Assembly (NCBI GenBank): GCA_040390725.1 | Contig: JAZJXT010000001.1 | Span: forward strand, 152,586 to 216,585 | Source of the DNA: Patescibacteria group bacterium | GTDB lineage: Bacteria; Patescibacteriota; Minisyncoccia; Phycocordibacterales; UBA9973 | Direction of reading: 5' to 3' | DNA length: 64,000 nucleotides | Shown here: positions 104 through 61,566 of the stretch, one piece after another | How positions within the stretch are numbered: position 1 is the first letter of the stretch | Layout of the letters: the number at the start of each line of letters is the position of its first letter | The notes under the pieces: model-generated | Database searches by the model: none | What the model saw: the letters and a program-made list of their open reading frames with translations, nothing else | Told to the model about the DNA's origin: nothing | Made by a program: the position numbers and the translations under genes

Positions 104-1498
104 ATGTCCCAAAAAATTTCAAAATTTTTAATTCTCACTTTGGCATTTGCGTCATTTATTTTTCTACCGAGTTTTTCTTCAGCTCAAGCAACATCATATT
201 ACTATAATTGGTATTTAGATACTGATACAACAGGTACAAAAGGACCATTTACATCACTAGAGCTTTGTGAGCAGGATGCTAGTGCGGGAGTATCTTCCGG
301 GGCGTATCAATCAACAGATCCTTGTTATACTGCTGCTACGCCATTAGGTTTGAGTTCTGGAAATTTAACTCCAAATTCTGCCGATGTTATAGCCACAGGT
401 CTTATTCCGAATACTGCATATCGTATCAGTATTTATTGGAAAAATAATCCTACAGATCAAGGTTATAGCAGGAAAGATGTGAGTTTTACCGCTAATAATT
501 CAGGCACTGAGACGGCATCTTTTTCTTCTATTCCTCCATCAATATCTTATGATGCTCGTTTATATAAAGTTTCAACGGGGCAGGTATTAAAAACTACAAC
601 TTTTACTACTAAAGCATTGCAAATAAGTGTGACACTTAGAGATTTAACAGCGACATCCAGTGAATTAATAGCCGGCGGGCTTTTCCCATACGGTACTGAT
701 TCGTATCTTTTTACTGTTTTAGTTACTTCTCCCGGTACTGCTTCAAATACTCAAAAACAAACAGTGACTCCCAGCAATAGCAATATAGCTACGGCTACAT
801 TTTCTGATTTGATTCCAGGGGTTTCATACACATTGATTATTTCCCATGGCAATCAAGACGATTTAAAAGAATTTGATTTTACAAAAGCTTTTCATGGTAT
901 TTGTGGTTCTGCCAATGGTCAATCTTTTCAAACAGCACCCACCGGGGATACGAATCTCTGCTCTGTAGGTATTTCTGATTCAATGACTGAAGACATAGCT
1001 TCATGGACATGGACATGTAAAATAAAAGATTCAAATGATTCTTCTACCAGTCAATATTGCTCCGCCACTAAGGCAGGGAATCCACCTCCGCCGACTCCTC
1101 CGACACCTCCATCATCAGGAGGCAAGGGTTTTGTCGGTGCTTTAGTTCCTTGCGGAATAAGTGAAAACAAGCTCAATACCAATGCGGTCACGGGCGCTCA
1201 GACGGGAGGAGGGGTCACACAGCCTTGCGGTTTTTATGATCTCCTAACTCTTGTAAATAACGTTGTAAGATTTATTATTTTTAATTTAGCTTTGCCCATA
1301 GCTGCTATCATGTTTGCTTATGCGGGTTTTCTACTTATCACTGCGGGGGGAGAGTCTGGTCAAATGACAAAAGCAAAAGGTATTTTTTCCGCAGTTGTGA
1401 TGGGCCTTATTTTTGTCGCGGCTGCATGGCTCATAGTGAAGCTCATTTTGGTTGTATTGGGTTACAAATCCGATTGGATAACTTGGTTTGGATTTTGA
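104..1498 (+). CDS. Secreted multidomain protein: signal peptide, FN3-like beta modules, Cys-rich region, Pro-rich linker (PPPPTPPTPP) and a C-terminal VirB2/TrbC-like pilin domain (two TM helices)
   Basis: ORF track 464 aa. N-terminal signal peptide ending SSAQA. The C-terminal about 110 aa have the same Cys-pair, two-TM architecture as the five downstream small paralogs. The stop overlaps the next start. Confidence 0.6.
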   Translation: MSQKISKFLILTLAFASFIFLPSFSSAQATSYYYNWYLDTDTTGTKGPFTSLELCEQDASAGVSSGAYQSTDPCYTAATPLGLSSGNLTPNSADVIATGLIPNTAYRISIYWKNNPTDQGYSRKDVSFTANNSGTETASFSSIPPSISYDARLYKVSTGQVLKTTTFTTKALQISVTLRDLTATSSELIAGGLFPYGTDSYLFTVLVTSPGTASNTQKQTVTPSNSNIATATFSDLIPGVSYTLIISHGNQDDLKEFDFTKAFHGICGSANGQSFQTAPTGDTNLCSVGISDSMTEDIASWTWTCKIKDSNDSSTSQYCSATKAGNPPPPTPPTPPSSGGKGFVGALVPCGISENKLNTNAVTGAQTGGGVTQPCGFYDLLTLVNNVVRFIIFNLALPIAAIMFAYAGFLLITAGGESGQMTKAKGIFSAVVMGLIFVAAAWLIVKLILVVLGYKSDWITWFGF

Positions 1499-1895
1499 AA
1501 TAATGTATAATAAAGATATGAATTTTAAATTAAAAAATTTTATAGGAATGTTCACAGTCGGTATTTTTGCTTTTTTTATTTTAGTTTTGCCGGTTGTTTC
1601 TCTTGCTAATACCGACAATACAGCTCCTGCTACTGTTCAAGTCGTCAATCCTATCAGCGTGAATGATCTAAATGGTTTTCTTAAAGTTATTTTAGAAGGC
1701 GTAGTTAAAATCGGTATGCCTATTATTGCCCTTGCTATTATTTATTGTGGCTTTCTTTTTGTTTCCGCTCAAGGCAACACAGCTGAGCTAGAAACAGCCA
1801 AGAAATCTCTGATGTATACTCTCATAGGAGCAGCATTATTATTAGGCGCTTGGGCTATAGCTCAGCTCATAACAGAGACTATTACAAGCCTTTAA
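1488..1895 (+). CDS. VirB2/TrbC-like T4SS pilin family protein (paralog 1)
   Basis: 135 aa: signal peptide, then two hydrophobic helices separated by a short polar loop (PIIALAIIYCGFLFVSAQGNTAELETAKKSLMYTLIGAALLLGAWAIAQLI). The start is ambiguous (ATG at 1488, 1503 or 1518). Confidence 0.55.
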   Translation: MDFEIMYNKDMNFKLKNFIGMFTVGIFAFFILVLPVVSLANTDNTAPATVQVVNPISVNDLNGFLKVILEGVVKIGMPIIALAIIYCGFLFVSAQGNTAELETAKKSLMYTLIGAALLLGAWAIAQLITETITSL

Positions 1896-1899
1896 AATT

Positions 1900-2265
1900 A
1901 TGAAGAAATTTATTTTATTTTCTTTAATTTCTCTTACTCCTTCATTTGTTTTTGCGCAGGCTTCGAGTCCCGTATGCAGTATCGGTACAAACTTCAAAGA
2001 TCTTGTTAATTATATATCTTGCCTTATAGAAGGGTCGGTGATTCCTTTTATATTCGGTTTAGCTGTCGTTGCATTTGTCTGGGGTGTTGTGAAGTTCCTC
2101 ATGAGTGCTGAGGATGAAACTCAAAAATCCCAAGGCAAACAATTCATGCTTTGGGGCATCATAGCTTTGGCTGTGATGGTGTCCATCTGGGGTTTGGTAA
2201 AATTACTGACCAATACTTTCGGAGTAAAATATGTTATTCCTCAGGTTCAAAATAAATCACAATAA
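1900..2265 (+). CDS. VirB2/TrbC-like T4SS pilin family protein (paralog 2)
   Basis: 121 aa: signal peptide, a Cys pair before TM1 and the conserved core ...FVWGVVKFLMSAEDE..KQFMLWGIIALAVMVSIWGLVKLLTNTF. Confidence 0.6.
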   Translation: MKKFILFSLISLTPSFVFAQASSPVCSIGTNFKDLVNYISCLIEGSVIPFIFGLAVVAFVWGVVKFLMSAEDETQKSQGKQFMLWGIIALAVMVSIWGLVKLLTNTFGVKYVIPQVQNKSQ

Positions 2266-2281
2266 CAATAACAATAACAAT

Positions 2282-2890
2282 ATGAAAAAATTTATAATTT
2301 TATTTTGTATAATAGTTCTGGCATTATCTTTTAAAATGGCTTTTGCTCAGTACAGCTGGAATTGGACTAATTATTCCGGGACTAATCAAAATATGAATGG
2401 ATCTGGCCTCACTACTCAGGGTACAAATACATGGGGAGGTACTACTCCTACGAATCCTTGGGGTTGGGGTTTTGGCTGGGGTAATGTAGCGCCTGTGATG
2501 AAGGTCCAAGGCCAGAAGCAAGTCGTCGGGGATAAACAAATCGTCGGCTCTACCAGTGATGCTATTACAGGTTCCGCTATGCCTTTTTCCTGTGCATTTA
2601 ATAACAATAATCCTACAGCCAAAGATATATTTAATTATGGTACCTGCGTACTAGGGAATTCTATTATTCCTCTTTTATTTTTATTTGCTTCTATTGTTTT
2701 TATGTGGGGTGTCATCCAATACGTTATCGGTGGACAAGAAGAAGCAAAAAAGGATAAAGGAAAGCAGTTTATGTTTTGGGGCATTATTGCCCTTTTTGTG
2801 GCTGTTTCGGTATGGGGATTAGTAGGTATTTTAACCGGTACATTTAATCTGAAAACCACTGCGCCGTCAGTACAGCCGGTTTCCGAGTAG
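2282..2890 (+). CDS. VirB2/TrbC-like T4SS pilin family protein (paralog 3) with a Gly/Trp/Asn-rich N-terminal extension
   Basis: The start is taken at MKKFIILF (ATG 2282) rather than the track start at 2231. The C-terminal core FMWGVIQYVIGGQEEAKKDKGKQFMFWGIIALFVAVSVWGLVGILTGTFNL matches the paralogs. Confidence 0.6.
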   Translation: MKKFIILFCIIVLALSFKMAFAQYSWNWTNYSGTNQNMNGSGLTTQGTNTWGGTTPTNPWGWGFGWGNVAPVMKVQGQKQVVGDKQIVGSTSDAITGSAMPFSCAFNNNNPTAKDIFNYGTCVLGNSIIPLLFLFASIVFMWGVIQYVIGGQEEAKKDKGKQFMFWGIIALFVAVSVWGLVGILTGTFNLKTTAPSVQPVSE

Positions 2891-3010
2891 TCCACAGTAT
2901 TGTTTGCAGGCTGTGAGATGGTTGTGATACAATATACGTGCCTAATATTTTAGGAAATTATTATTAACAGGTCGTTTATTATTATAAATTAAGATTTAAG
3001 AATTTTTATT

Positions 3011-3397
3011 ATGAAAAAGAAATTTATCGTGTTGGGTAGCGTTTTGTCTTTTGCGCCGATGCTTGCTTTCGCGCAGACAGTTTGTACTACAAATGTTGGA
3101 ACTATCGACTGGCTATTGTGTAGAGTGGGAGATTTACTAAACACAGTTGTGCCTGTGCTTATCGCTTTAGGTGTTGTTTACTTCATCTGGGGTGTCGTTA
3201 CTTATGTAGTTGCAGGTGATGAAGAAGCAAAGAAGACAGGACGAGACAGAATGATCTACGGTATCATCGGTCTAGTTGTTATCGTGTCTATCTGGGGATT
3301 GGTTAGTATCTTGAAGAGTACATTCAATCTTTCAAGTTCAAACCCTGGCACTGTGCAAGTTCCTTGTATTCCTATCCCTCCAAACGTAACTTGTTAA
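3011..3397 (+). CDS. VirB2/TrbC-like T4SS pilin family protein (paralog 4)
   Basis: 128 aa: signal peptide, Cys pair and the core YFIWGVVTYVVAGDEEAKKTGRDRMIYGIIGLVVIVSIWGLVSILKSTFNL. Confidence 0.6.
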   Translation: MKKKFIVLGSVLSFAPMLAFAQTVCTTNVGTIDWLLCRVGDLLNTVVPVLIALGVVYFIWGVVTYVVAGDEEAKKTGRDRMIYGIIGLVVIVSIWGLVSILKSTFNLSSSNPGTVQVPCIPIPPNVTC

Positions 3398-3413
3398 TTT
3401 AATTTTTAATTAG

Positions 3414-3770
3414 ATGAATTTATTTTCTGTAAACATAGCTTATGCTGCGACTTCAAGATTTGATACATTTATCAGCAATGTTGATAGCAAAATTATCAAT
3501 CCGCTTATAATTTTATTATTTGTCTTGGCTATCGCTTATTTTTTGTGGGGAGTCTTTCAATTTATCTCCAATCAAGATAATGAAGAAAAAAAGACCGACG
3601 GCAAAAATCATATGATTTATGGAATATTGGGGCTGGTTATCATGATCAGTGTCTGGGCTATTCTTCAGGTTATTTTAAACACCTTGGATATACAAAAGTC
3701 TGGTCAGATAAATCCTGAAGAGGGAACAGTGCACTTAAATGATTACAATCCTCCATCATCTAATAATTAA
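3414..3770 (+). CDS. VirB2/TrbC-like pilin family protein (paralog 5, divergent, no obvious leader)
   Basis: 118 aa with the core AYFLWGVFQFISNQDNEEKKTDGKNHMIYGILGLVIMISVWAILQVILNTL. It is followed by a strong terminator. Confidence 0.5.
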   Translation: MNLFSVNIAYAATSRFDTFISNVDSKIINPLIILLFVLAIAYFLWGVFQFISNQDNEEKKTDGKNHMIYGILGLVIMISVWAILQVILNTLDIQKSGQINPEEGTVHLNDYNPPSSNN

Positions 3771-5786: not shown

Positions 5787-6021
5787 AACACTATATATTA
5801 AAAATTAAAATTGATTACTCATTAAAGTCTTTTGTTTTTTTACCCCACCACTTCAGGTGCAAATAAAAAATGTTTTATTAAAAGACTTATTCTGAGCAAC
5901 CAATCAAATTTAAATTTTTGTCAAAGGACGGAGTCCAGCAATAGTGTATCACAATCAAACGAAAAAGTCAACCCTTGTGGGGCTGACTTTTTATGTTGAA
6001 ATATAAGGCTAGATTTCGAGA

Positions 6022-7867: not shown

Positions 7868-9397
7868 TTATCTTTGTGTCACTGAAAATGATTCCAAGAC
7901 ATCTCCGGAAACAATTTCAATTTTTGATTCGACCATAGTTCCAAATTCCGAACCTTCTTCTACCTCGCTTACTTTTGCTTTACTCTTTTCCAAATTCACT
8001 ATCTTGCCTTTACCTATTTCGAAATCTCGGCGCATTATTTTAACAGTTTCACCTAGGGTAATTTTACCCTCAGTAACTTTCCCTCCGACTATTTGTCTTT
8101 CTTTTGTTCTGCTAAAAGCTTTGATGATTTTTGCTTTGCCTTTTGTCTCAGTAGTTTCTACTCGCGGGCGTCTTTTTTCCATTTCTTCCGCGAGCCATTC
8201 TGTCATTTTGTAAATGATGTCAAAGTGGTTTATTGTGATGCCTCTATTCAATGCTAGCTCGGTGGCATTTTTATCTATTTTTACATTGAAGCCTATTACC
8301 AATACATCACCCGGAATAGTGATATTTTTAATATCTGATTCCAATATTGGTCCTGTGCCTTTTTGAATTATTTTAAATTCTGCGCCGTCACTTTTTATTT
8401 TAGCTATTTCTTTTTCCACGGCTTCGAGTGAGCCGGCAACATCTGTTTTAATAACTATCGGAATGATTTTATTGCCTAACTTGGGAGCTGAGCTCCCAAG
8501 TGGGAGCTCAGCTCCCAAGTTCTTGAAATTCTCAACATATTTCTCAGCATCCTGTTTCTTGTCGAAAGTTTTAAACTCTGCACCGATTTTAGGTACTTTG
8601 TCGAAGCCTACGAGCCTGATGGGGGATGAGAAGCTAGCATCGTTTACCATTTTACCTAAAAAGTTTTCTATGATGCGAGTGGAGCACATAGCATCTTCTA
8701 CCACTACAGTCATACCATTTTTAAGCGAGCCATTTTTGATAATAAGGGTGGCTTGGATTCCGCGTTTTGAGTCTAGGTGAGCTTCGATGACGTAGCCTGA
8801 AGCATTTTCATCAAGAGTGCCGGTGAAGTTTTCAAGTTCCGCTAAAATTAAAATAAGTGAAAGCAAATTGTCTACACCTGCCCCAGTCTTTGCAGATATT
8901 TCCGCAAAAGGAGTTTTGCCCCCGTAATTTTCCAAATAAATTTCATTCTCAGCTAGGCTCATTTTTGTTCTTTCGATGTCCGCACCCGGTTTGTCTATTT
9001 TATTTATTGCTACGATGCAAGGGGTATTACTAGCAACTATTGTCTTCCATGCTTCAACTGTCTGTGGCTTGACGCCGTCTTCTGCTGATACTACGAGTAT
9101 CGCGATATCGGCGAGCTTTGCTCCGCGTTCACGCATTTTAGAAAAGGCTTCATGTCCCGGTGTATCCAAAAATGTAATTTTTTTTATGTGCTCGCCTGCC
9201 CCGTTGAAAGTACTCTTTCCTTCGGGGTCTTTATGAATAACTTCATAAGCAGAAATATGCTGAGTGATGCCTCCGGCTTCGCGTTCTACGACATTTGATT
9301 TACGGATGTAATCCAAAAGAGTCGACTTGCCGTGGTCGATATGTCCCATCACTGCCACTACCGGTGGTCTTTCAATTGTATTTTTTTCTTTTTCCAT
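7868..9397 (-). CDS. infB: Translation initiation factor IF-2 (short form lacking the long N-terminal region)
   Basis: GTPase motifs VAVMGHIDHGKSTLLD, FLDTPGHEAF, NKIDK; beta-barrel domains follow. Confidence 0.9.
   Translation of the reverse strand: MEKEKNTIERPPVVAVMGHIDHGKSTLLDYIRKSNVVEREAGGITQHISAYEVIHKDPEGKSTFNGAGEHIKKITFLDTPGHEAFSKMRERGAKLADIAILVVSAEDGVKPQTVEAWKTIVASNTPCIVAINKIDKPGADIERTKMSLAENEIYLENYGGKTPFAEISAKTGAGVDNLLSLILILAELENFTGTLDENASGYVIEAHLDSKRGIQATLIIKNGSLKNGMTVVVEDAMCSTRIIENFLGKMVNDASFSSPIRLVGFDKVPKIGAEFKTFDKKQDAEKYVENFKNLGAELPLGSSAPKLGNKIIPIVIKTDVAGSLEAVEKEIAKIKSDGAEFKIIQKGTGPILESDIKNITIPGDVLVIGFNVKIDKNATELALNRGITINHFDIIYKMTEWLAEEMEKRRPRVETTETKGKAKIIKAFSRTKERQIVGGKVTEGKITLGETVKIMRRDFEIGKGKIVNLEKSKAKVSEVEEGSEFGTMVESKIEIVSGDVLESFSVTQR
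8480..8519. repeat. Tandemly duplicated GC-rich palindrome (cttgggagctgagctcccaag x2) in frame within infB
   Basis: Read directly. It encodes LGAELPLGSSAPKLG and its composition differs sharply from the flanking AT-rich coding sequence. Confidence 0.7.
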
Positions 9398-9880: not shown

Positions 9881-9937
9881 ACCATTTCAATATATACTAC
9901 TTTTATGCGAAAATCAACCAAAAAACCAAATAAAATC

Positions 9938-11041
9938 TATATGGACTACGCGTCTTCTTTTTCACCGAACCCGAGCTCTATACATGGTTTGGGTGTTGAG
10001 GCTAAAAAGAAACTAGAAAATGCTCGCAAGGAAACGGCGGAGCTTTTATATGCGCGTCCGGATGAAATTATTTTTACTAGCGGAGGAACGGAAAGTAATA
10101 ATCTTGCCATTTTAGGAGTTTTTAAAAATTTAAAAAATCCGCATATCATTACTACAAACATAGAACATGCTTCAGTACTAGAAGTTTTTAAACATTTGGA
10201 AAAAACAAAACAAGCGGAAGTTACTATTGTTCCAGTTGAAACAAATGGCATAGTTGATCCGAAAAAAATCAAAAAAGCGATTAAGGAAAATACTGTTTTA
10301 ATTTCTGTAATGTATGCGAATAATGAAATAGGAACTATTCAACCGATTCGTGAAATTGTGAAAGAGGTGAGGCATTATAGAAAAAATGCAAAAAGTACTT
10401 TTCCTTTTGTACATACCGATGCAGTGCAGGCGGGTAATTATTTGGATTTGAATGTTGAAAGGCTAGGTGTAGATATGATGTCTTTGAGTGGTTCAAAAAT
10501 TCAAAATGCTGGCAGAGTTGGGGTGTTGTATACAAAAAGAAAAACACCAATTAGTTCGATAATGTTTGGTGGTGATCAAGAAGGGGGACTTCGACCAGGT
10601 ACAGAAAATTTGCCGGCAATTTTGGATTTCGTAAAAGCATTTAAAGAAGTTAGAAAAATAAAAGATAAAGAAATAAAAAGATTAACAAAGTTGAGAGATT
10701 ATTTTATTCAGAAATTATTACATTCTAACATTATCAATAATGTCATAATGTTAAATGGCGACGCGAAAGAAAGATTGCCAAATAATATAAATATAACAAT
10801 ATCAAAAATACCTAGCGACCTTTTGGTGCTCGAGCTTTCCGCGCGAGGTATATATGTTTCTGAAAAAAGCGCTTGCAAGTCAGGGGATACAGAATCTTCT
10901 CACGTCATCCGTGCAATTTGCAAAAAAGATTCTCAATCCTTGCGCTTTTCTATGGGCAGATCAACAGCCAAAGCCGACATTGATTACACATTAAAATCCC
11001 TTTCCCAAATTTTGCAAAAATTAAAAAAGTGGTATACTTAA
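9938..11041 (+). CDS. Cysteine desulfurase / class V aminotransferase family protein (NifS/IscS-like)
   Basis: IFTSGGTESNNLAIL.., HTDAVQA.., the PLP-Lys region SLSGSKIQNAGRVGVLY, and ..GTENLPAI. The start could be 9905 or 9938. Confidence 0.7.
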   Translation, partial: YMDYASSFSPNPSSIHGLGVEAKKKLENARKETAELLYARPDEIIFTSGGTESNNLAILGVFKNLKNPHIITTNIEHASVLEVFKHLEKTKQAEVTIVPVETNGIVDPKKIKKAIKENTVLISVMYANNEIGTIQPIREIVKEVRHYRKNAKSTFPFVHTDAVQAGNYLDLNVERLGVDMMSLSGSKIQNAGRVGVLYTKRKTPISSIMFGGDQEGGLRPGTENLPAILDFVKAFKEVRKIKDKEIKRLTKLRDYFIQKLLHSNIINNVIMLNGDAKERLPNNINITISKIPSDLLVLELSARGIYVSEKSACKSGDTESSHVIRAICKKDSQSLRFSMGRSTAKADIDYTLKSLSQILQKLKKWYT

Positions 11042-15259: not shown

Positions 15260-17011
15260 ATGGGTAAATTTGATAAAGGTCCAATTGAAAATATTAATGA
15301 AGCGCATGATTATGCTAATGCTGAAAAGGCATTTAAGGAATTACCTGCATTTATAACTCTTGATAAGAGTGATCCAAAAATAGCAGAAGCTATTAATTTT
15401 CTTGCGGAAGAAGTGGCAGAACAATCGAGGTTGGCTTATATAAATAGGCATCAATTTGATCTTGGCAGTCGAGAAGCTATTAAAAAATCCAGAGAAATAA
15501 AGGTCGAGGCATCAGGTAGAGGAATTAAAACTAGCGCAAACCCTGGTAAGTATTTTAAAGCCATTTATGAAAGAGTAGCTAATGCAATTGATCAGATGAT
15601 TACTGACAATGCAAGATGGGTTTCAGTTCAAGAAAAAAAAGTTCTCGATATATTGCCTGAAGAAGATCCAAGAGAAATACATGATTTTTTTGGGCATGGA
15701 TTAAAGATGTTTTTTCTTCAGCAATTTAGATTAGAAAGTTTGCAGAGTAAAGAACATAGTAAGGAAAAGGTTTCTATTTCTCTTCAGGATCCTCAATATA
15801 TAAAGGATCAAATTTTTGCTTACAGCTTTGATTTTATTCAGTCGTTAAAAGAGTCAGCAAGAGAAGAAGTTACACCTAGGCAAGCCTTGCGACTTGCTGA
15901 GTTAACTTATCAATATAATCCCGGCGTACTGCAAGAATTTATGAAAAAGTATCCGCAAATTGAAAAAGGCGTTATTTTAGTGGTTTTGACCGCTTATCGT
16001 AATCCGGAAGAATTTCTTAATTCTTACATTACTAGAGTTGAAGAATTGACGAAAAAGTATAAAGGTAAGGTTGGTAAAGGTGTAATCAGTCAAGCAGCTT
16101 TAGGTTATGCTCCGACTAAAAAGAACCCTAATAATTCTGAAAAATTTATTGAGACATATATGTTAGAGGTAATTAGGTTGCGGGGTTTATATCCTGGTGT
16201 CAGTAATACTGTCCTGCATGATGCTGCTAGTAATCATCCTAATAGTAAGGAAAATCCTAGGAATTCCGAGAATTCTCTTGATTCATATTTATTAGCATTA
16301 AAAACTTTGTCAGCAAATTATCCAAAAGTAGATACACATGTTATTCAACAATTTATTTTAAAATATCGAGCTAATGCAAAAGATGTTATTGATAGATATA
16401 TAAACAAATTGCCGGAATTAATGAAAAAATATAAAGAACTTGGTGTTAATAATTATGCAATAAGATTTATTTGTATGTCTACTCCTTCAACTAAATATCA
16501 TCCAGATAGACCAGAGAAAAATCTCGATTCTTATATTGAAAAGTTAGATGATCTGAGGAAAAGGTATGGAAAAAATGAAAATAAAAAAGATGAAGGTGTC
16601 GATGATATTGTTTTAAAATATGCTATTTTTGCGAATTTGAGCAATTCTGAAGGTTATATTAAAAATTATATTCAGTTTTTGGGTGAATTAAAAAAGAATT
16701 ATGATGGTGTTGTTGATAAACGAGCACTTAATCATGCAAGTCGTAGATATTGTCTCAAGGAAGATGGGCTTGAAAAAGCTAAAAATTTTCTTAATAAATA
16801 TATTACTGAAGTTGAAAGATTGTTGAAAAAATATTTAGGATTTGAAAAAGATACTACTCTATACGCCGCGCTTAAACATCCAGATGACCCTGATACTTAC
16901 ATTGAAGAATGCCAAAAAGGTCTTCATCCAAAAGAAGAACAAGAAGCCGATTTAAATAACCCAGATGTTATTGGTGATTTATCTGAGATTGATATTGAAA
17001 ATATTGAATAG
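15260..17011 (+). CDS. Hypothetical helical-repeat protein (degenerate roughly 55-aa repeats of the form ..SYI..L.EL.KKY.G..)
   Basis: 583 aa with about eight degenerate repeats visible by eye (YITRVEELTKKYKG, YINKLPELMKKYKE, YIEKLDDLRKRYGK, YIQFLGELKKNYDG, YITEVERLLKKYLG). Confidence 0.5.
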   Translation: MGKFDKGPIENINEAHDYANAEKAFKELPAFITLDKSDPKIAEAINFLAEEVAEQSRLAYINRHQFDLGSREAIKKSREIKVEASGRGIKTSANPGKYFKAIYERVANAIDQMITDNARWVSVQEKKVLDILPEEDPREIHDFFGHGLKMFFLQQFRLESLQSKEHSKEKVSISLQDPQYIKDQIFAYSFDFIQSLKESAREEVTPRQALRLAELTYQYNPGVLQEFMKKYPQIEKGVILVVLTAYRNPEEFLNSYITRVEELTKKYKGKVGKGVISQAALGYAPTKKNPNNSEKFIETYMLEVIRLRGLYPGVSNTVLHDAASNHPNSKENPRNSENSLDSYLLALKTLSANYPKVDTHVIQQFILKYRANAKDVIDRYINKLPELMKKYKELGVNNYAIRFICMSTPSTKYHPDRPEKNLDSYIEKLDDLRKRYGKNENKKDEGVDDIVLKYAIFANLSNSEGYIKNYIQFLGELKKNYDGVVDKRALNHASRRYCLKEDGLEKAKNFLNKYITEVERLLKKYLGFEKDTTLYAALKHPDDPDTYIEECQKGLHPKEEQEADLNNPDVIGDLSEIDIENIE

Positions 17012-17065
17012 GAAATCTTATAAAAAGATGCAAAAAATTTAATTTTGTGGTATTTTGTATTGCAT

Positions 17066-22006: not shown

Positions 22007-22083
22007 TTTCTGCTAGACTGGAAGTGTTCTTTAATTAGTAAAGAAACATTCGGGAGTAGCTCAGCGGTAGAGCGATCGCCTGT

Positions 22084-22646
22084 GGAAATTTCCTCCCTCT
22101 GGTATAATGTTCTTATGCCAGACAATAGGAAATATGCTGATAGACGCGAAGCACTTATTAAAGCTGTTGCAAAACGACGCAAGAAAATAAAAGTTCTTGC
22201 TGTCGAGTACAAAGGAGGCAAATGCCAAATTTGTGGATATATGAAATGTATCGGTGCTTTGGAACTTCATCATATTATTCCAAAAGATAAAAGTTTTGGA
22301 GTAGGTGATAAGGGATATACACGTGCATGGAGTATAGTGCAAAAAGAGTTAGATAAGTGTGCGCTTCTTTGTGCAAATTGTCACAGAGAAGTCGAGTCAG
22401 GCATTACGCAGCTTTCTATCGAAAGATAGATCGAAAACGAGGTGAATTCGGGGAAGCCCAAGCTTGTCATGAGCGGGTAATCCCGAGCCAAGCTCCGACG
22501 TAAGTCGGAGAAGGTGTAGAGACTATCCCGTAAGGGAGTAGTGTTCCAAATTTTGGAATCCGAAGCGCCTCGCTTCTAAGTCTTTTGAGTAATCAAAGGA
22601 TATGAAGATGATATAGTCCGTACCATTAGTAATAATGGAATAAACG
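22084..22646 (+). ncRNA. Group I intron (putative self-splicing) in the tRNA-Asn anticodon loop, carrying an HNH ORF
   Basis: It follows an exon-terminal U and ends in G immediately before the 3' exon. The P7-like pairing halves GACTA (about 22530) and TAGTC (about 22616) are present. The ORF sits in a 5' peripheral loop. Confidence 0.6.
22115..22429 (+). CDS. HNH homing endonuclease (intron-encoded)
   Basis: CQICGY...LELHHIIPK...CANCHREVE is a His-Asn-His/zinc-finger nuclease motif. The track start 22082 is a GTG inside the exon/intron boundary; ATG 22115 is preferred. Confidence 0.7.
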   Translation: MPDNRKYADRREALIKAVAKRRKKIKVLAVEYKGGKCQICGYMKCIGALELHHIIPKDKSFGVGDKGYTRAWSIVQKELDKCALLCANCHREVESGITQLSIER

Positions 22647-22691
22647 TAAGCGATTGGTCGTAGGTTCGATCCCTACCTCCCGAGCCAGTTA

Positions 22692-22728
22692 GCAAAGCAC
22701 CTCCTTAAGGGAGGTGCTTTGCTTTTTG
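22692..22728 (+). terminator. Rho-independent terminator after tRNA-Asn
   Basis: gcaaagcacctcc-ttaa-ggaggtgctttgc followed by ttttt. Confidence 0.6.
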
Positions 22729-22866
22729 TATCTCGGGAGAGAAAGCCAACTGCTTGGCTTTCGTGTAGGGAGCGAACAACGGAGCAATAAATTTTCAGTA
22801 GAAAATTTTGTGAGTTGGTGCCCAGACAAAATTTTTTGGCGAAAAAATTTTAGTCGAGGGAGATAC

Positions 22867-22881
22867 CCCTACCTCCCGAGC
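22867..22881. repeat. 15-bp direct repeat of the tRNA-Asn 3' end (ccctacctcccgagc), 180 bp downstream of the gene
   Basis: Identical to 22671-22685. The att-like duplication suggests an old or residual integration site. Confidence 0.6.
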
Positions 22882-22959
22882 AATTAAAATAACCTTAATT
22901 TGCAAGGATTATTTATGTATTCTTACGGGGTTTAAAATTTTTATGATATAATTCTTTTT

Positions 22960-48028: not shown

Positions 48029-50434
48029 ATGAAAAATTACGATCATAAAATAATTGAAAAAAAGTGGCAGGAGGAATGGGATAAGAATAAAATTTACAAA
48101 GTCGCTGATGAAGTAAAAGGCAAAGAAAATTTCTATCAGCTTGTGGAATTTACTTATCCTTCGGGCAATTTGCACGTGGGGCATTGGTATGCTTTTTCTG
48201 TGCCGGATATTTTTGCTCGTTATAAAAGAATGAGCGGATACAATGTTCTTTACCCGATGGGTTTTGATGCTTTTGGTTTGCCTGCGGAAAATGCGGCGAT
48301 AAAACTCGGCGCGGATCCTAAAATTTGGACTTATGAACATATGGATAAAATGCGTTTACAGCTTCGCTCTATGGGCGCGTCTTTTGATTGGGAAAGGGAA
48401 GTTGTCACTTGTGATCCGAAATATTACAAATGGACGCAATGGATGTTTAATCAATTTTTGAAAAATGATTTGGCGTATCGAGATACTACGAAAGTAAATT
48501 GGTGTCCGAAAGATATGACGATACTTGCAAATGAGCAGGTGACCGACGGTAAATGTGAACGCTGTGGTAATGAGGTAGAGCAACGCGATCAAGAACAGTG
48601 GATGTTGCGCATTTCAAAATACGCGGATAGATTGATAGATGACCTTGATGCTTTAGACTGGCCTCTTGAAATAAAATCCGCGCAGAAAAATTGGATTGGC
48701 AGGAGCGAGGGGAGCGAGATTGAATTTGAGGTTCACCCCCACCCAGCCTCCCCCTTAGCTAAGGGGGAGGTGCCGAAGGCGGAGGGGGTGCGAGTTTTCA
48801 CAACAAGAGCTGATACTCTTTTTGGTGTTAGTTATATTGCAATTGCGCCGGAGCATGAATTAATTTTAAAATTAAAAGATAAAATTGAAAATTATGATGA
48901 AGTAGAAAAATATATTTCAGATACTAAAAAGAAATCTGAACTTGATCGACAGCAATCCAAAGAAAAAACAGGAGTGGAATTAAAAGGAATAAAAGCTATA
49001 AATCCGGCAACTGGCGAATGGCTTTCTGTTTGGACTGCGGACTATGTTTTGGCAGGTTATGGCACAGGTGCAGTGATGGGAGTACCTCAACATGATGAGA
49101 GGGATAATGCTTTTGCTGTAAAATATAATTTACCAATAATTGATAAACCCTTAGTTGATGCAAAAGAAGTTACAGAAAAAGTCGGTGGGAAATTAGTCAG
49201 CACATATAGGTTGCGTGATTGGGGGATTTCTCGGCAGAGGTATTGGGGCGTACCTATACCGATAGTTTACGATACTGAAGGCAAAGCGCATCCGGTGCCG
49301 GATGAACATTTGCCTTGGCTGTTGCCGACAGATGTAGACCACAAGCCTTCGGGTGTCGCTCCTCTTTCAAAGAGTAAAGAACTTTTAGAAAGAACAGAAA
49401 AAATATTTGGAAAAGGCTGGCGTCCGGAAGTCGAAACGATGGATACATTCGTGGATTCTTCTTGGTATTTTTACAGATACTTGGATAATAATAATGACAA
49501 AGAATTTTCCGCAAAAGAAAAAATGGAATCTTGGATGCCGGTTGATTTATATATGGGCGGAGCGGAGCACACCACGATGCATTTACTTTATTCTCGTTTT
49601 TGGGTAAAGGCTTTGTTTGATTTAGGTTTGGTAAAAGATGCCGAGGCGTATAAAGTGCGCAAGAACCGCGGACTTATTTTAGGACCGGATGGAAATAAAA
49701 TGTCCAAGTCAAAAGGCAATGTCATAGATCCGGATGAAATAGTGGACAGGCTCGGCGCTGATACTGTGCGTTTATATTTGGCATTTATGGGTCCGTACGG
49801 AGTGACGGTGAATTATCCTTGGGATCCAAATGGCGTCGTCGGCGTGAGGAGATTCTTAGAAAGGGTTTGGAAGTTGGCAGAAAGAATTACAGCGAAGCCA
49901 GCAAAGGATTTTGGAGCCTTCGCCCTCGGAGACATAGGACAGGGAACCCATGACTCTAAAAATTCTTTGCTGGCTTCGCAATCAAAACTTCTGCATAAAA
50001 CAATCAAAAGCATAAGTGAAGATATGGAGGAACATAAATATAATACTTGTATTTCTAAAATGATGATTCTTTTAAATAGTTTTGATAAAGAAGAAAAAGT
50101 TTCAACAGAAGACTTTAAAACTTTCTTGTGTTTGCTTGCGCCGTTTGCTCCACATATAGCCGAAGAGCTTTGGACAGAGCTTGGTGAAAAAGAAAGCATA
50201 CATCTTTCCCTATGGCCGAAGTATGATGAAAACTTAATTAAAGATGATGAAATAAAAATCGCTGTGCAGGTGAATGGTAAAGTCAGGGGAGAGATAACTA
50301 TCAGCGTGGATGAAAATGAAGAAGAAATAAAAAATAAAGGATTGGCAGATGAAAATGTCGCCCGACATCTCGCCAGCAAGGAAATAAAAAAAGTTATTTA
50401 TGTGAAAGGTAGGCTCATAAGTATTGTGGTTTAA
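48029..50434 (+). CDS. leuS: Leucine--tRNA ligase
   Basis: HIGH-region motif HVGHWYAF, KMSKSKGN, the CP1 editing domain and the anticodon-binding domain; 801 aa. Confidence 0.95.
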   Translation: MKNYDHKIIEKKWQEEWDKNKIYKVADEVKGKENFYQLVEFTYPSGNLHVGHWYAFSVPDIFARYKRMSGYNVLYPMGFDAFGLPAENAAIKLGADPKIWTYEHMDKMRLQLRSMGASFDWEREVVTCDPKYYKWTQWMFNQFLKNDLAYRDTTKVNWCPKDMTILANEQVTDGKCERCGNEVEQRDQEQWMLRISKYADRLIDDLDALDWPLEIKSAQKNWIGRSEGSEIEFEVHPHPASPLAKGEVPKAEGVRVFTTRADTLFGVSYIAIAPEHELILKLKDKIENYDEVEKYISDTKKKSELDRQQSKEKTGVELKGIKAINPATGEWLSVWTADYVLAGYGTGAVMGVPQHDERDNAFAVKYNLPIIDKPLVDAKEVTEKVGGKLVSTYRLRDWGISRQRYWGVPIPIVYDTEGKAHPVPDEHLPWLLPTDVDHKPSGVAPLSKSKELLERTEKIFGKGWRPEVETMDTFVDSSWYFYRYLDNNNDKEFSAKEKMESWMPVDLYMGGAEHTTMHLLYSRFWVKALFDLGLVKDAEAYKVRKNRGLILGPDGNKMSKSKGNVIDPDEIVDRLGADTVRLYLAFMGPYGVTVNYPWDPNGVVGVRRFLERVWKLAERITAKPAKDFGAFALGDIGQGTHDSKNSLLASQSKLLHKTIKSISEDMEEHKYNTCISKMMILLNSFDKEEKVSTEDFKTFLCLLAPFAPHIAEELWTELGEKESIHLSLWPKYDENLIKDDEIKIAVQVNGKVRGEITISVDENEEEIKNKGLADENVARHLASKEIKKVIYVKGRLISIVV
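48747..48770. repeat. Perfect 24-bp GC-rich palindrome (cctcccccttagctaagggggagg) inserted in frame in leuS
   Basis: It encodes part of HPHPASPLAKGEVPKAEGVR, which replaces about 8 residues in the E. coli enzyme between EFEV and VFTTR. Confidence 0.7.
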
Positions 50435-59721: not shown

Positions 59722-61524
59722 ATGGAATTAAAACAAATTAGAAATTTTTCGATTATAGCGCATATTGACCACGGGAAAAGCACCTTGGCTGATAGAATGC
59801 TCGAGATAACGCATACTATTGAAAAAAGAAAAATGAAAGACCAAGTGCTCGACAATATGGAGCTCGAGCGCGAACGCGGAATCACTATAAAAATGCAACC
59901 AGTGCGGATGGAATTTAAGGCAGGTAATGAGAATTTTATTTTAAATCTTATTGATACTCCTGGGCATATAGACTTTTCTTATGAAGTTTCGCGAGCCTTG
60001 AAAGCAGTAGAAGGTTCTATTTTACTTGTGGACTCTACTCAAGGTGTGCAGGCTCAAACTCTTACTACTTTAAATATGGCGCGTGAGGGTGGACTTAAAA
60101 TTATTCCTGTTTTGTCAAAAATAGATTCTCCTTTAGCTCGAGTAGAAGATGTAAAAGAAGAAGTAGTGAAGCTTTTGAATTGTGATCCGGATGAAATACT
60201 TTTAGTATCAGGGCGCACCGGTGAGGGGGTGGAGGATTTATTAAAAGAAGTTATAAAACGGGTACCTCCACCGAAGGAAACTTATTCCAAGGATGGGAAT
60301 TTACGCGCATTGGTTTTCGATTTTAAATATTCCAATCATCGCGGTGTGACGGTGTATGTGAGGTTGCTCGATGGCGCAGTTTCCAAGGGCGAGAGTTTGA
60401 TTTTCTCCGCATCACAAGAGAAATTTATTCCGCTTGAGGTGGGAATTTTTGCACCGGAAGAAAATGCTCGACCGGAGCTTTTGGTGGGTGAAATAGGTTA
60501 TATTGTTACTGGTATAAAGCAACCCGGCATAGCCAGCGTTGGAGATACTATTACCTTTCTTAAAAATCCATTGCCTCCGCTGTCTGGTTATGAAAAACCT
60601 CGTCCTGTAGTCTGGGCTTCTATTTTCCCTGAAGATGCTGATGACTTTGCTGATTTAAAAGCAGCCCTGGGCAAGCTTCGTCTTTCTGATTCAGCATTTT
60701 CTTATGAAGAAGAATCATCAGGCTCACTTGGGCGTGGATTTCGTTGTGGATTTTTAGGTATGCTTCACTTGGAAATAATTACAGAAAGATTGAAGAGGGA
60801 ATTTGATTTGGAATTGGTTATCACGACGCCGTCTATTACTTATGAAGTAGTAATGAAGGGTGGAAAAAGAGAAAAAATTTATTCCCCGTATTTTTTTCCG
60901 GATGATGGAAATATCCAAGAAGTTTTTGAGCCTTGGGTAGCAGTAAAAATAATTACGCCGTCTACATATATAGGAAATATTATGCAATTACTTTTTGATC
61001 ATGAGGCTGAAATAGGCGAGACGGAAAATTTCGGAGACAATCGTTCCGCTCTTTCATTAAAAATGCCTTTGCGAGAATTGATGCGTAATTTTTTTGACGA
61101 ATTAAAAAGCGCTTCCTCGGGTTATGCTTCGATATCTTACGAAATAGGAGAGATGCGTGAAGCCAATGTTACCCGCTTAGATATATTAGTTGCTGATGAA
61201 CCGGTGCCTGCATTTTCGCGTGTTGTATCTAAAAAGAAAGTGGAAGAAGAAGCCGAAAGAGCGGTGGAAAAACTTCACGGTATTTTGCCGAAACAAATGT
61301 TTACCACAAAAATACAAGGCAAGGCCTTGGGTAGAATTATTTCATCGCGCACTATTCAGGCATTTAAAAAAGACGTTACTCAGCATATGTATGGAGGGGA
61401 CATAACACGCAAAATGAAACTCCGTGAAAAGCAGAAAAAAGGCAAGAAGAAAATGAAAGAACGCGGACGAGTAAATATCCCTCAAGATGTATTCTTGAAG
61501 ATGATGCGTTCAGGGGATAAATAA
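59722..61524 (+). CDS. lepA: Elongation factor 4 (LepA)
   Basis: IRNFSIIAHIDHGKSTLADR, DTPGHIDF, and the LepA-specific C-terminal domain; 600 aa. Confidence 0.9.
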   Translation: MELKQIRNFSIIAHIDHGKSTLADRMLEITHTIEKRKMKDQVLDNMELERERGITIKMQPVRMEFKAGNENFILNLIDTPGHIDFSYEVSRALKAVEGSILLVDSTQGVQAQTLTTLNMAREGGLKIIPVLSKIDSPLARVEDVKEEVVKLLNCDPDEILLVSGRTGEGVEDLLKEVIKRVPPPKETYSKDGNLRALVFDFKYSNHRGVTVYVRLLDGAVSKGESLIFSASQEKFIPLEVGIFAPEENARPELLVGEIGYIVTGIKQPGIASVGDTITFLKNPLPPLSGYEKPRPVVWASIFPEDADDFADLKAALGKLRLSDSAFSYEEESSGSLGRGFRCGFLGMLHLEIITERLKREFDLELVITTPSITYEVVMKGGKREKIYSPYFFPDDGNIQEVFEPWVAVKIITPSTYIGNIMQLLFDHEAEIGETENFGDNRSALSLKMPLRELMRNFFDELKSASSGYASISYEIGEMREANVTRLDILVADEPVPAFSRVVSKKKVEEEAERAVEKLHGILPKQMFTTKIQGKALGRIISSRTIQAFKKDVTQHMYGGDITRKMKLREKQKKGKKKMKERGRVNIPQDVFLKMMRSGDK

Positions 61525-61525
61525 G

Positions 61526-61566
61526 AGGCAAGACCTAACATGTTAGGTCTTGCCTCTTGGTTTTAT
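61526..61566 (+). terminator. Rho-independent terminator after lepA
   Basis: Perfect 14-bp-stem hairpin gaggcaagacctaa-catg-ttaggtcttgcctc followed by tttt. Confidence 0.75.

Follow-up and report, generated by a model that had tools for sequence, protein, structure and literature searches.

In-frame hairpin repeats in infB and leuS of a Patescibacteria genome: a REPIN-type doublet and a second dispersed hairpin family

Why do long, GC-rich palindromes lie in frame within two essential genes of a low-GC bacterium? The question is raised by a 64-kb stretch of DNA (hereafter, the window; positions 152,586 to 216,585 of contig JAZJXT010000001.1) from a Patescibacteria group bacterium with a genomic GC content of about 36%, the nearest relative of which is a Candidatus Nomurabacteria metagenome-assembled genome (MAG). 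The genes concerned are infB, encoding initiation factor IF-2, and leuS, encoding leucyl-tRNA synthetase (LeuS). Comparison with 80 IF-2 loci of species-level relatives (1.2 Mb in total) and with metagenomic DNA leads us to propose, with a probability of roughly 0.8, that both features are non-autonomous, hairpin-forming mobile repeats that settled in linkers or surface-exposed loops of essential proteins, the infB element belonging to a system of repetitive extragenic palindromes (REPs) and REP-associated tyrosine transposases (RAYTs), and the leuS element to a second family. The infB element is a REPIN-type doublet (REPINs being hairpin-forming REP doublets) of a REP/REPIN-RAYT system that is present in Nomurabacteria/Paceibacteria and is mostly intragenic; selfish DNA of this sort is familiar, but its location is unusual.

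The infB doublet, its dispersal and an associated transposase

A first-pass annotation, made from the letters of the window, had called attention to GC-rich palindromes embedded in frame in infB and leuS. Both are real, a 44-nt inverted repeat in infB and a 24-nt palindrome in leuS, and neither hairpin is expected by chance: shuffling the window 100 times with dinucleotides preserved produced 0.09 perfect stems of at least 12 per shuffle and no stem of at least 18, compared with an observed maximum of 21. The infB repeat is built from inverted copies of the 23-nt palindrome ACTTGGGAGCT-N-AGCTCCCAAGT, forming 21-nt arms that are 100% complementary and separated by a 2-nt spacer. Unit 1 reads ACTTGGGAGCTGAGCTCCCAAGT, whereas unit 2 is inverted and lacks the first bases; the doublet type can be written as TTGGGAGC..GCTCCCAA, twice, inverted. 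Each arm is a near-palindrome on its own, with G as the centre base of unit 1 and C as that of unit 2; hence, what had been taken for a tandem duplication is an inverted one.

On the mRNA strand, the doublet folds with -42.4 kcal/mol (z = -9.5). It codes for IF-2 residues 293-307 (NLGAELPLGSSAPKL; the peptide stretch over the hairpin is LGAELPLGSSAPK), which form a linker between domain II (199-276) and the C1 domain (309-400) that is hypervariable among the 120 homologues compared. In the closest relative (79% identity in IF-2), the element is absent, and an ordinary linker, equally long, is AT-rich and abundant in Lys and Asn. Within the 80 IF-2 loci (comparison loci and contigs are cited by L numbers), the linker contains long perfect palindromes with arms of 18-22 nt in L003, L010, L019, L033 and L049, the arms being complementary inside each genome and different from species to species.

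The palindrome of the infB doublet defines a repeat family, denoted family A. An exact-match scan of metagenomes with the 19-mer TTGGGAGCTNAGCTCCCAA retrieved 110 stretches in low-GC contigs, several of which contain multiple copies, and four family-A copies reside on one 12-kb metagenome stretch. Altogether, over 20 housekeeping gene families in related DNA, unrelated to one another, contain family A in frame. They include 18 further Pfam-verified host families (e.g., purA, uvrD, uvrB, polA, ligA, recJ, folD, fmt, trmD, mnmA, rnhB, asnB, alr and PIF1), and the palindrome is read in all three frames, yielding the peptides LGA(K/E)LP, WELSSQ and GS(L/S)APK. Family-A doublets occupy infB in L003 and L033, typA in L020, and the class V aminotransferase gene in L032, L072 and L076, and further double-palindrome families of the relatives reside in typA, the aminotransferase gene and a glycosyltransferase gene. 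In relatives, four recurrent loops of the aminotransferase gene, which adjoins infB, contain inserts that are GC-rich and for the most part palindromic. Leaving aside the flanks of RAYT genes, 32 of the 42 repeat sites (~76%), and 26 of the 28 that belong to families A-E (93%), fall within stretches of 150 codons or more that contain no stop. Given that such stretches account for 84% of the bases in the relatives, the repeats are not excluded from genes. Thus, the part of the first-pass proposal that envisaged dispersed, evidently mobile in-frame palindromes, polymorphic among relatives, stands; the absence of a second copy from the window, which speaks against it, is considered below.

The repeat family is physically associated with a RAYT-type gene. 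Two family-A palindromes, ~715-730 nt apart, bracket a 220-aa open reading frame (ORF) in several contigs. This ORF contains the motifs FYHIYNRG, NQNHYHFILEP (the HUH motif) and YVNLN, and the two representatives tested, from L152 and L111, match the Pfam family Y1_Tnp (PF01797), scoring 30 and 35.5 bits where the cutoff is 23. Altogether, 2.05 Mb of relative and metagenome DNA encompass 24 Y1_Tnp ORFs. The flanks were checked for 19 genes. Beside 18 of these lies a palindrome that belongs to one family; in 12 cases it stands on either side of the gene, as a rule in inverted orientation. Twelve Y1_Tnp genes go with family A; nine, all from Paceibacteria MAGs, with family B, TGTCAA(A/G)G..C(T/C)TTGACA; and the remaining three with the palindromes GAGGCAAGACCTC (family E) and CCTAGGTCGGACCTAGG, family-E REPs flanking the RAYTs of L070 and L120. 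The association with Y1 transposases extends across families A, B, E and G. Eight of the family-B genes are located 6.5-10 kb downstream of infB (L003, L008, L033, L048, L050, L052, L060 and L073), a conserved position that may point to vertical inheritance; the transposase gene is nearer to infB in L032 and L070.

Several repeats at the transposase loci match doublets inside other genes. The RAYT of L155 contains, inside the ORF, a REP identical to unit 1 of the window, and the REP just upstream of this gene matches unit 2. The typA doublets of L015, L061 and L064 correspond to the two flanks of the L073 RAYT joined head to head. Furthermore, the RAYT ORFs of L135, L144, L155, L157 and L170 harbor their own REP in frame, coding for (L/F)GS(L/S)APK, and the REP-coded loop falls in a low-confidence, disordered segment (55-67) of the AlphaFold2 model of the transposase.

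The HUH histidines and one tyrosine, Tyr143, are invariant among the transposases. When the AlphaFold2 model (pLDDT, the predicted local distance difference test, 81.3) was used as a Foldseek query, the best match in the PDB was 4ER8, E. coli TnpA-REP with a REP hairpin (E = 7e-5), followed by the TnpA proteins of IS608 and ISDra2. A single-sequence search of the PDB gave no matches, and a profile search gave only 4ER8 (E = 0.54). Because family A brackets Y1 transposase genes with a 4ER8-like fold, we assign it to a REP/REPIN-RAYT system. Homologues of the transposase number 4,112; NCBI names the best of them as Nomurabacteria, Paceibacterota, Campbellbacteria and Parcubacteria, and some carry the JGI label 'REP element-mobilizing transposase RayT'. 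One homologue, P0250, and the intragenic-doublet carrier L076 come from the same named MAG, RIFOXYB1_FULL_39_16.

The leuS hairpin and family F

The perfect 24-nt palindrome of leuS, recognized in the first pass as part of an insertion, is a 12+12 stem at 48747-48770 that forms the core of a 57-nt GC-rich element with outer arms CACCCCC (48734-48740) and GGGGGTG (48784-48790) and a mini-hairpin, TGCCGAAGGCG, at 48771-48781. The surrounding 77-nt stretch (48725-48801) folds with -40.2 kcal/mol (z = -3.7). The element codes for approximately residues 236-254, a beta-turn directly ahead of FTTRADT at the entry to the editing domain, with ASPLAKGEVPK as the peptide across the hairpin. Where the window has EIEFEVHPHPASPLAKGEVPKAEGVRVFT, the closest relative's LeuS (87% identity) has EIEFGIKNVEEKIKVFT, so that 8 codons compare with 20; the empty leuS site is GAATTTGGAATAAAAAATGTTGAAGAAAAGATAAAAGTATTT, and the loop comprises 4-5 residues in most of 120 homologues. 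Alignment of IF-2 and LeuS with the sister genome, as had been proposed at the outset, accordingly finds both elements absent there.

The LeuS loop ahead of FTTRADT is a hot spot at which DUF559 endonuclease, ASCH and alpha/beta hydrolase domains are accommodated in frame in relatives (homologues P0139, P0186, P0152, P0218, P0208 and P0215; loci L082 10697-11173 and L083 4623-5096). Separately, about half of the LeuS homologues include a NUDIX domain (PF00293), which is missing from the LeuS of the window.

The leuS element is a member of a second dispersed hairpin family, F. Family F consists of polypyrimidine/polypurine hairpins, CCCTCTCCTT-NNN-AAGGAGAGGG or CCTCCCCCT..AGGGGGAGG, often with outer arms CACCTCACCC/GGGTGAGGTG and a TGCYGAARGCG mini-hairpin. 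The composite architecture is common to the window, L033 and L075, with covarying arms; a MAFFT alignment of the family places the outer arms out of register. In 1.25 Mb of DNA from relatives, we found 28 copies, 17 of them in ORFs, and no Y1 transposase was detected alongside family F in the 2.05 Mb surveyed. The suggestion that the infB and leuS palindromes, together with a hairpin that follows tRNA-Asn, form one family with related arms is rejected: the three share only a 5-mer, and family A is linked to a RAYT whereas none was found with family F.

A lead to the mobiliser of family F comes from the leuS loop itself. At this very site, L199 contains a partial F element, whereas L082 and L083 contain an in-frame DUF559 endonuclease bracketed by F-type hairpins, the outer arms of L082 forming a ~30-nt terminal inverted repeat. 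The 5' parts of the inserts in the window, L199, L082 and L083 agree in position, frame and the motif SPxP..P..KG. Free-standing DUF559 genes (L152 834-1258, the same as L159 6345-6772, and L179 753-1183) are likewise bracketed by inverted polypyrimidine/polypurine hairpins, so that all four DUF559 genes found in DNA resembling that of the candidate phyla radiation (CPR) are enclosed in this manner. The DUF559 (Vsr-like) gene is the best candidate mobiliser for family F, a lead rather than proof. It is possible, if tentative, that the leuS element and family F as a whole are non-autonomous derivatives of a hairpin-bounded DUF559 endonuclease element that homes in frame into conserved genes. 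More specifically, and somewhat less probably, family F could be the miniature derivative of an undescribed mobile unit in which a DUF559 gene, coding for a Vsr-like PD-(D/E)xK enzyme, sits within inverted polypyrimidine/polypurine hairpins and enters specific loops of conserved genes, such as leuS, in frame. However, just three or four independent cases are available; the 80 IF-2 loci contain the 28 F-type hairpins but no DUF559; close DUF559 relatives were not found in viral contigs, and the five distant ones, in viral contigs L201-L205, lack flanking hairpins; the hairpins could be plain terminators around a small selfish gene; and no paper on DUF559 with palindromes was found.

Other hairpins and neighboring features of the window

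The features of the window discussed here are collected in Table 1. Motif searches of the window that allowed one mismatch returned only the infB doublet, the leuS element and a third, intergenic palindrome, whereas a listing of GC-rich 30-mers gave no discrimination. The intergenic palindrome differs from the family-E REP core GAGGCAAGACCTC by one mismatch and is probably a third REP-type element. The hairpin after tRNA-Asn, which had been grouped with the infB and leuS palindromes, is confirmed as a hairpin, is followed by a T run and fits an ordinary intrinsic terminator.

Table 1. Coordinates of genes and hairpin elements in the 64-kb window
Feature	Position	Strand	Remarks
infB (IF-2, 509 aa)	7868..9397	-	Host gene of the family-A REP doublet
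Family-A REP doublet, REPIN-like	8478..8521	.	Unit 1, 8479-8501; inverted unit 2, 8502-8520
Class V aminotransferase (378 aa)	9905..11041	+	'Empty' reference; one to several palindromic inserts in many relatives
Hairpin and T run after intron-containing tRNA-Asn	22691..22723	+	Intrinsic-terminator-like
leuS (801 aa)	48029..50434	+	Host gene of the family-F element
Family-F composite hairpin, 57 nt	48734..48790	+	Architecture also in L033 8835-8899 and L075 8921-8985
Intergenic 18+18 perfect palindrome AAGAGGCAAGACCTAACA/TGTTAGGTCTTGCCTCTT	61523..61558	.	Directly after ORF 59722..61524; terminator-like

Some further observations concern the surroundings of these features and hairpins elsewhere. 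The tRNA-Asn(GTT) at 22050-22690, not called by ARAGORN, is interrupted in the anticodon loop by a group I intron (Rfam RF00028, 70.8 bits) that holds an HNH-type endonuclease ORF (22082..22429). Just 3' of it, at 22733-22882, the acceptor and T-arm ends are repeated (TCGGGAG...CCCTACCTCCCGAGCA) in what looks like a partial duplicate. A hairpin at 5961-5992, AAAAAGTCAACCC-TTGT-GGGGCTGACTTTTT, is situated between two minus-strand ORFs and recurs with one-sided G-T wobble in at least nine related loci, perhaps as a conserved terminator or a small RNA. Positions 104-3770 comprise a six-gene cluster with T4SS_pilin (PF18895) matches, as annotated on the corresponding Logan contig.

Outside the window, many relatives (L023, L027, L039, L056, L064, L066, L068 and L076) share a syntenic hairpin, CGCACAAAGCATG..CATGCTTTGTGCG, ~600-800 nt 3' of infB, which is absent from the window. 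In L019, ~1.6 kb (15448-17040) with ORFs of 282 aa and 126 aa separate two identical CCTCCCCTTATCAGGGGAGG hairpins; this segment, in which no transposase was found, may be an inserted island. The motif AATTGGGAGCT(A/T)AGCTCCCAATT, common to AT-rich human-gut and viral contigs (L194-L197, L084, L118, L119, L132, L133 and L167), where its intergenic surroundings are conserved, probably represents a phage terminator that is unrelated and matches the search pattern by accident.

Known systems, alternative explanations and implications

The association of REPs with RAYT (TnpA-REP) transposases was reportedly described by Nunvar in 2010. REP/REPIN-RAYT systems are now well known (Bertels & Rainey 2011, PMC3116915; Di Nocera 2013, PMC3733652; PDB 4ER8), and REPs inside ORFs were catalogued in 2013 in Proteobacteria and Opitutus (Di Nocera 2013, PMC3733652). 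The system described here resembles them in that the repeats are short GC-rich hairpins, found singly and as inverted doublets (here, in related genomes), that the repeat brackets, mostly in inverted orientation, a Y1 HUH transposase gene whose product is nearest in fold to 4ER8, that several families exist, each with its own transposase, and that the position of the transposase gene is roughly conserved in most carrier relatives. Unlike in the known systems, the hosts are Patescibacteria; about 76% of the copies (93% for families A-E) lie in long ORFs rather than being extragenic; the doublets are compact, at 38-48 nt with a spacer of 0-6 nt; REPs reside even in frame within the transposase ORF; and the transposase is too divergent for the NCBIfam RAYT model, with no GTAG or CGTC tag accompanying the repeats. 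This tetranucleotide at the foot of the hairpin is the mark of the super-families of Di Nocera (PMC3733652).

The IS200/IS605 elements, too, encode a Y1 HUH transposase that recognizes subterminal hairpins in single-stranded DNA. Here, however, both flanking hairpins are copies of one palindrome that is also dispersed alone, the gene appears to occupy a roughly syntenic locus across species instead of being multicopy, and there is no tnpB. The Rickettsia palindromic elements (RPEs), reportedly introduced by Ogata and colleagues in 2000, are said to be the classic in-frame case. They have been described as selfish palindromic repeats inside protein genes (PMC3733652), and the first-pass annotation had likened the infB and leuS palindromes to them. 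The likeness holds for the in-frame residence in functional, often essential genes of a small genome, where the insertions are tolerated in surface loops, but the closest system is REP/REPIN-RAYT: RPEs, as described, measure ~100-150 bp, form Rickettsia-specific families and have no known transposase, whereas the elements here measure 23-57 nt (44 in infB and 57 in leuS) and a cognate Y1 transposase goes with at least four of their families. Fungal mitochondrial genomes contain GC-rich palindromic clusters and double-hairpin elements, some of them in frame in coding sequence. These share with the present elements the GC-rich hairpins, the AT-rich compact genome and the double-hairpin architecture, but they are organellar, unrelated in sequence and devoid of an associated transposase. 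Intragenic REPs and RPEs have been described before, and what is unusual here is the Patescibacteria host, the mostly intragenic copies, the compact doublets, the divergent transposase and the lack of the GTAG/CGTC tag. No paper on REP/RAYT in CPR bacteria was found in the literature.

By analogy with the TnpA-REP of E. coli and the IS608 paradigm, the transposase would bind the folded single-stranded REP hairpin at the replication fork, cut and rejoin the DNA, and thereby move the repeat in trans. Purifying selection would then clear the insertions, unless they happen to be in frame, free of stop codons and located in a tolerant loop. The surviving copies would persist in essential genes for the very reason that the frame is kept, no stop codon is introduced and the repeat is translated as a short flexible peptide.

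Several observations weigh against the interpretation of the two elements as mobile repeats. Mobility is deduced from distribution, no transposition event having been observed. No second copy of family A or F is present in the 64-kb window, nor is a RAYT or DUF559 gene, and the source contig (274,923 bp) is not among the origins of the best 120 of the 4,112 RAYT homologues. The NCBIfam RAYT model NF047646 scores 16.1 bits against a cutoff of 80, and the foot of the hairpin lacks a GTAG or CGTC tag, with ACTT, TTTT, ATGTTT and CCCCCATT as flanks. Given the equal length of the infB linker in the sister genome, the boundaries of that insertion cannot be placed exactly. Finally, separate lineages have elements at identical sites of infB and leuS, with perfect arms in each genome, which could also reflect selection for structure or in-situ homogenization of the arms.

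The first of these possibilities is that selection maintains the hairpins as cis-acting RNA or DNA structures of infB and leuS themselves, which might pause ribosomes at domain boundaries, be cut by RNase III or stabilize the mRNA. It would account for stems that are very stable and perfect, for the presence of some palindrome at this infB linker in no fewer than 10 of the 80 relatives and at this leuS loop in four or more lineages, and for arms that vary by species yet remain complementary. We nevertheless consider it improbable, because the identical sequence recurs in more than 20 unrelated genes, in intergenic DNA and in the flanks of transposase genes, the nearest relative lacks both elements, and the same site is occupied by different families in different species. 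Still less probable is the second possibility, namely, that the palindromes were made in place by template switching or fold-back replication error, with homogenization of the arms, and never moved: such a process cannot place one and the same 19-23-mer in dozens of genes that have no relation to each other, and beside a dedicated transposase. Some duplication or deletion of units in situ nonetheless seems real, given that the stem reaches into variable flanks in each genome and that singlet and doublet forms exist at apparently the same aminotransferase site (L099 versus L093, L185 and L188). That the palindromes are assembly or sequencing artefacts, i.e., fold-back chimeras in a MAG, is scarcely credible: although the IF-2 protein of the window is recorded from a single NCBI assembly only and the 8.7-kb Logan contig with window genes (run SRR26324628) stops ~1 kb before infB, the same element types appear in frame in independent NCBI, JGI, ENA and Logan assemblies, with long ORFs preserved. 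DNA uptake sequences were dismissed in view of the many families at low copy number, and RNA-level excision because long ORFs are open in all copies.

If infB and leuS indeed harbor mobile repeats, the implications extend beyond these two genes. Mobile DNA is generally held to be rare in the tiny, packed genomes of Patescibacteria; in the Nomurabacteria/Paceibacteria studied here, several REP families and their transposases are common, and, with intergenic space being scarce, the repeats reside mainly inside housekeeping genes. The odd GC-rich peptides in alignments of CPR proteins, such as LGAKLP, WELSSQ and GSLAPK, are thereby explained, and the long perfect palindromes present a practical hazard in assembly and alignment. 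The link to DUF559, if it holds, would provide a role for a very widespread domain of unknown function, and the corresponding unit, if real, would be a homing-like element with neither intron nor intein that is simply translated through. For the conserved proteins of these bacteria, REP insertion is a source of variation in loops and linkers, and their genomes offer a natural test bed for the target choice of REPINs.

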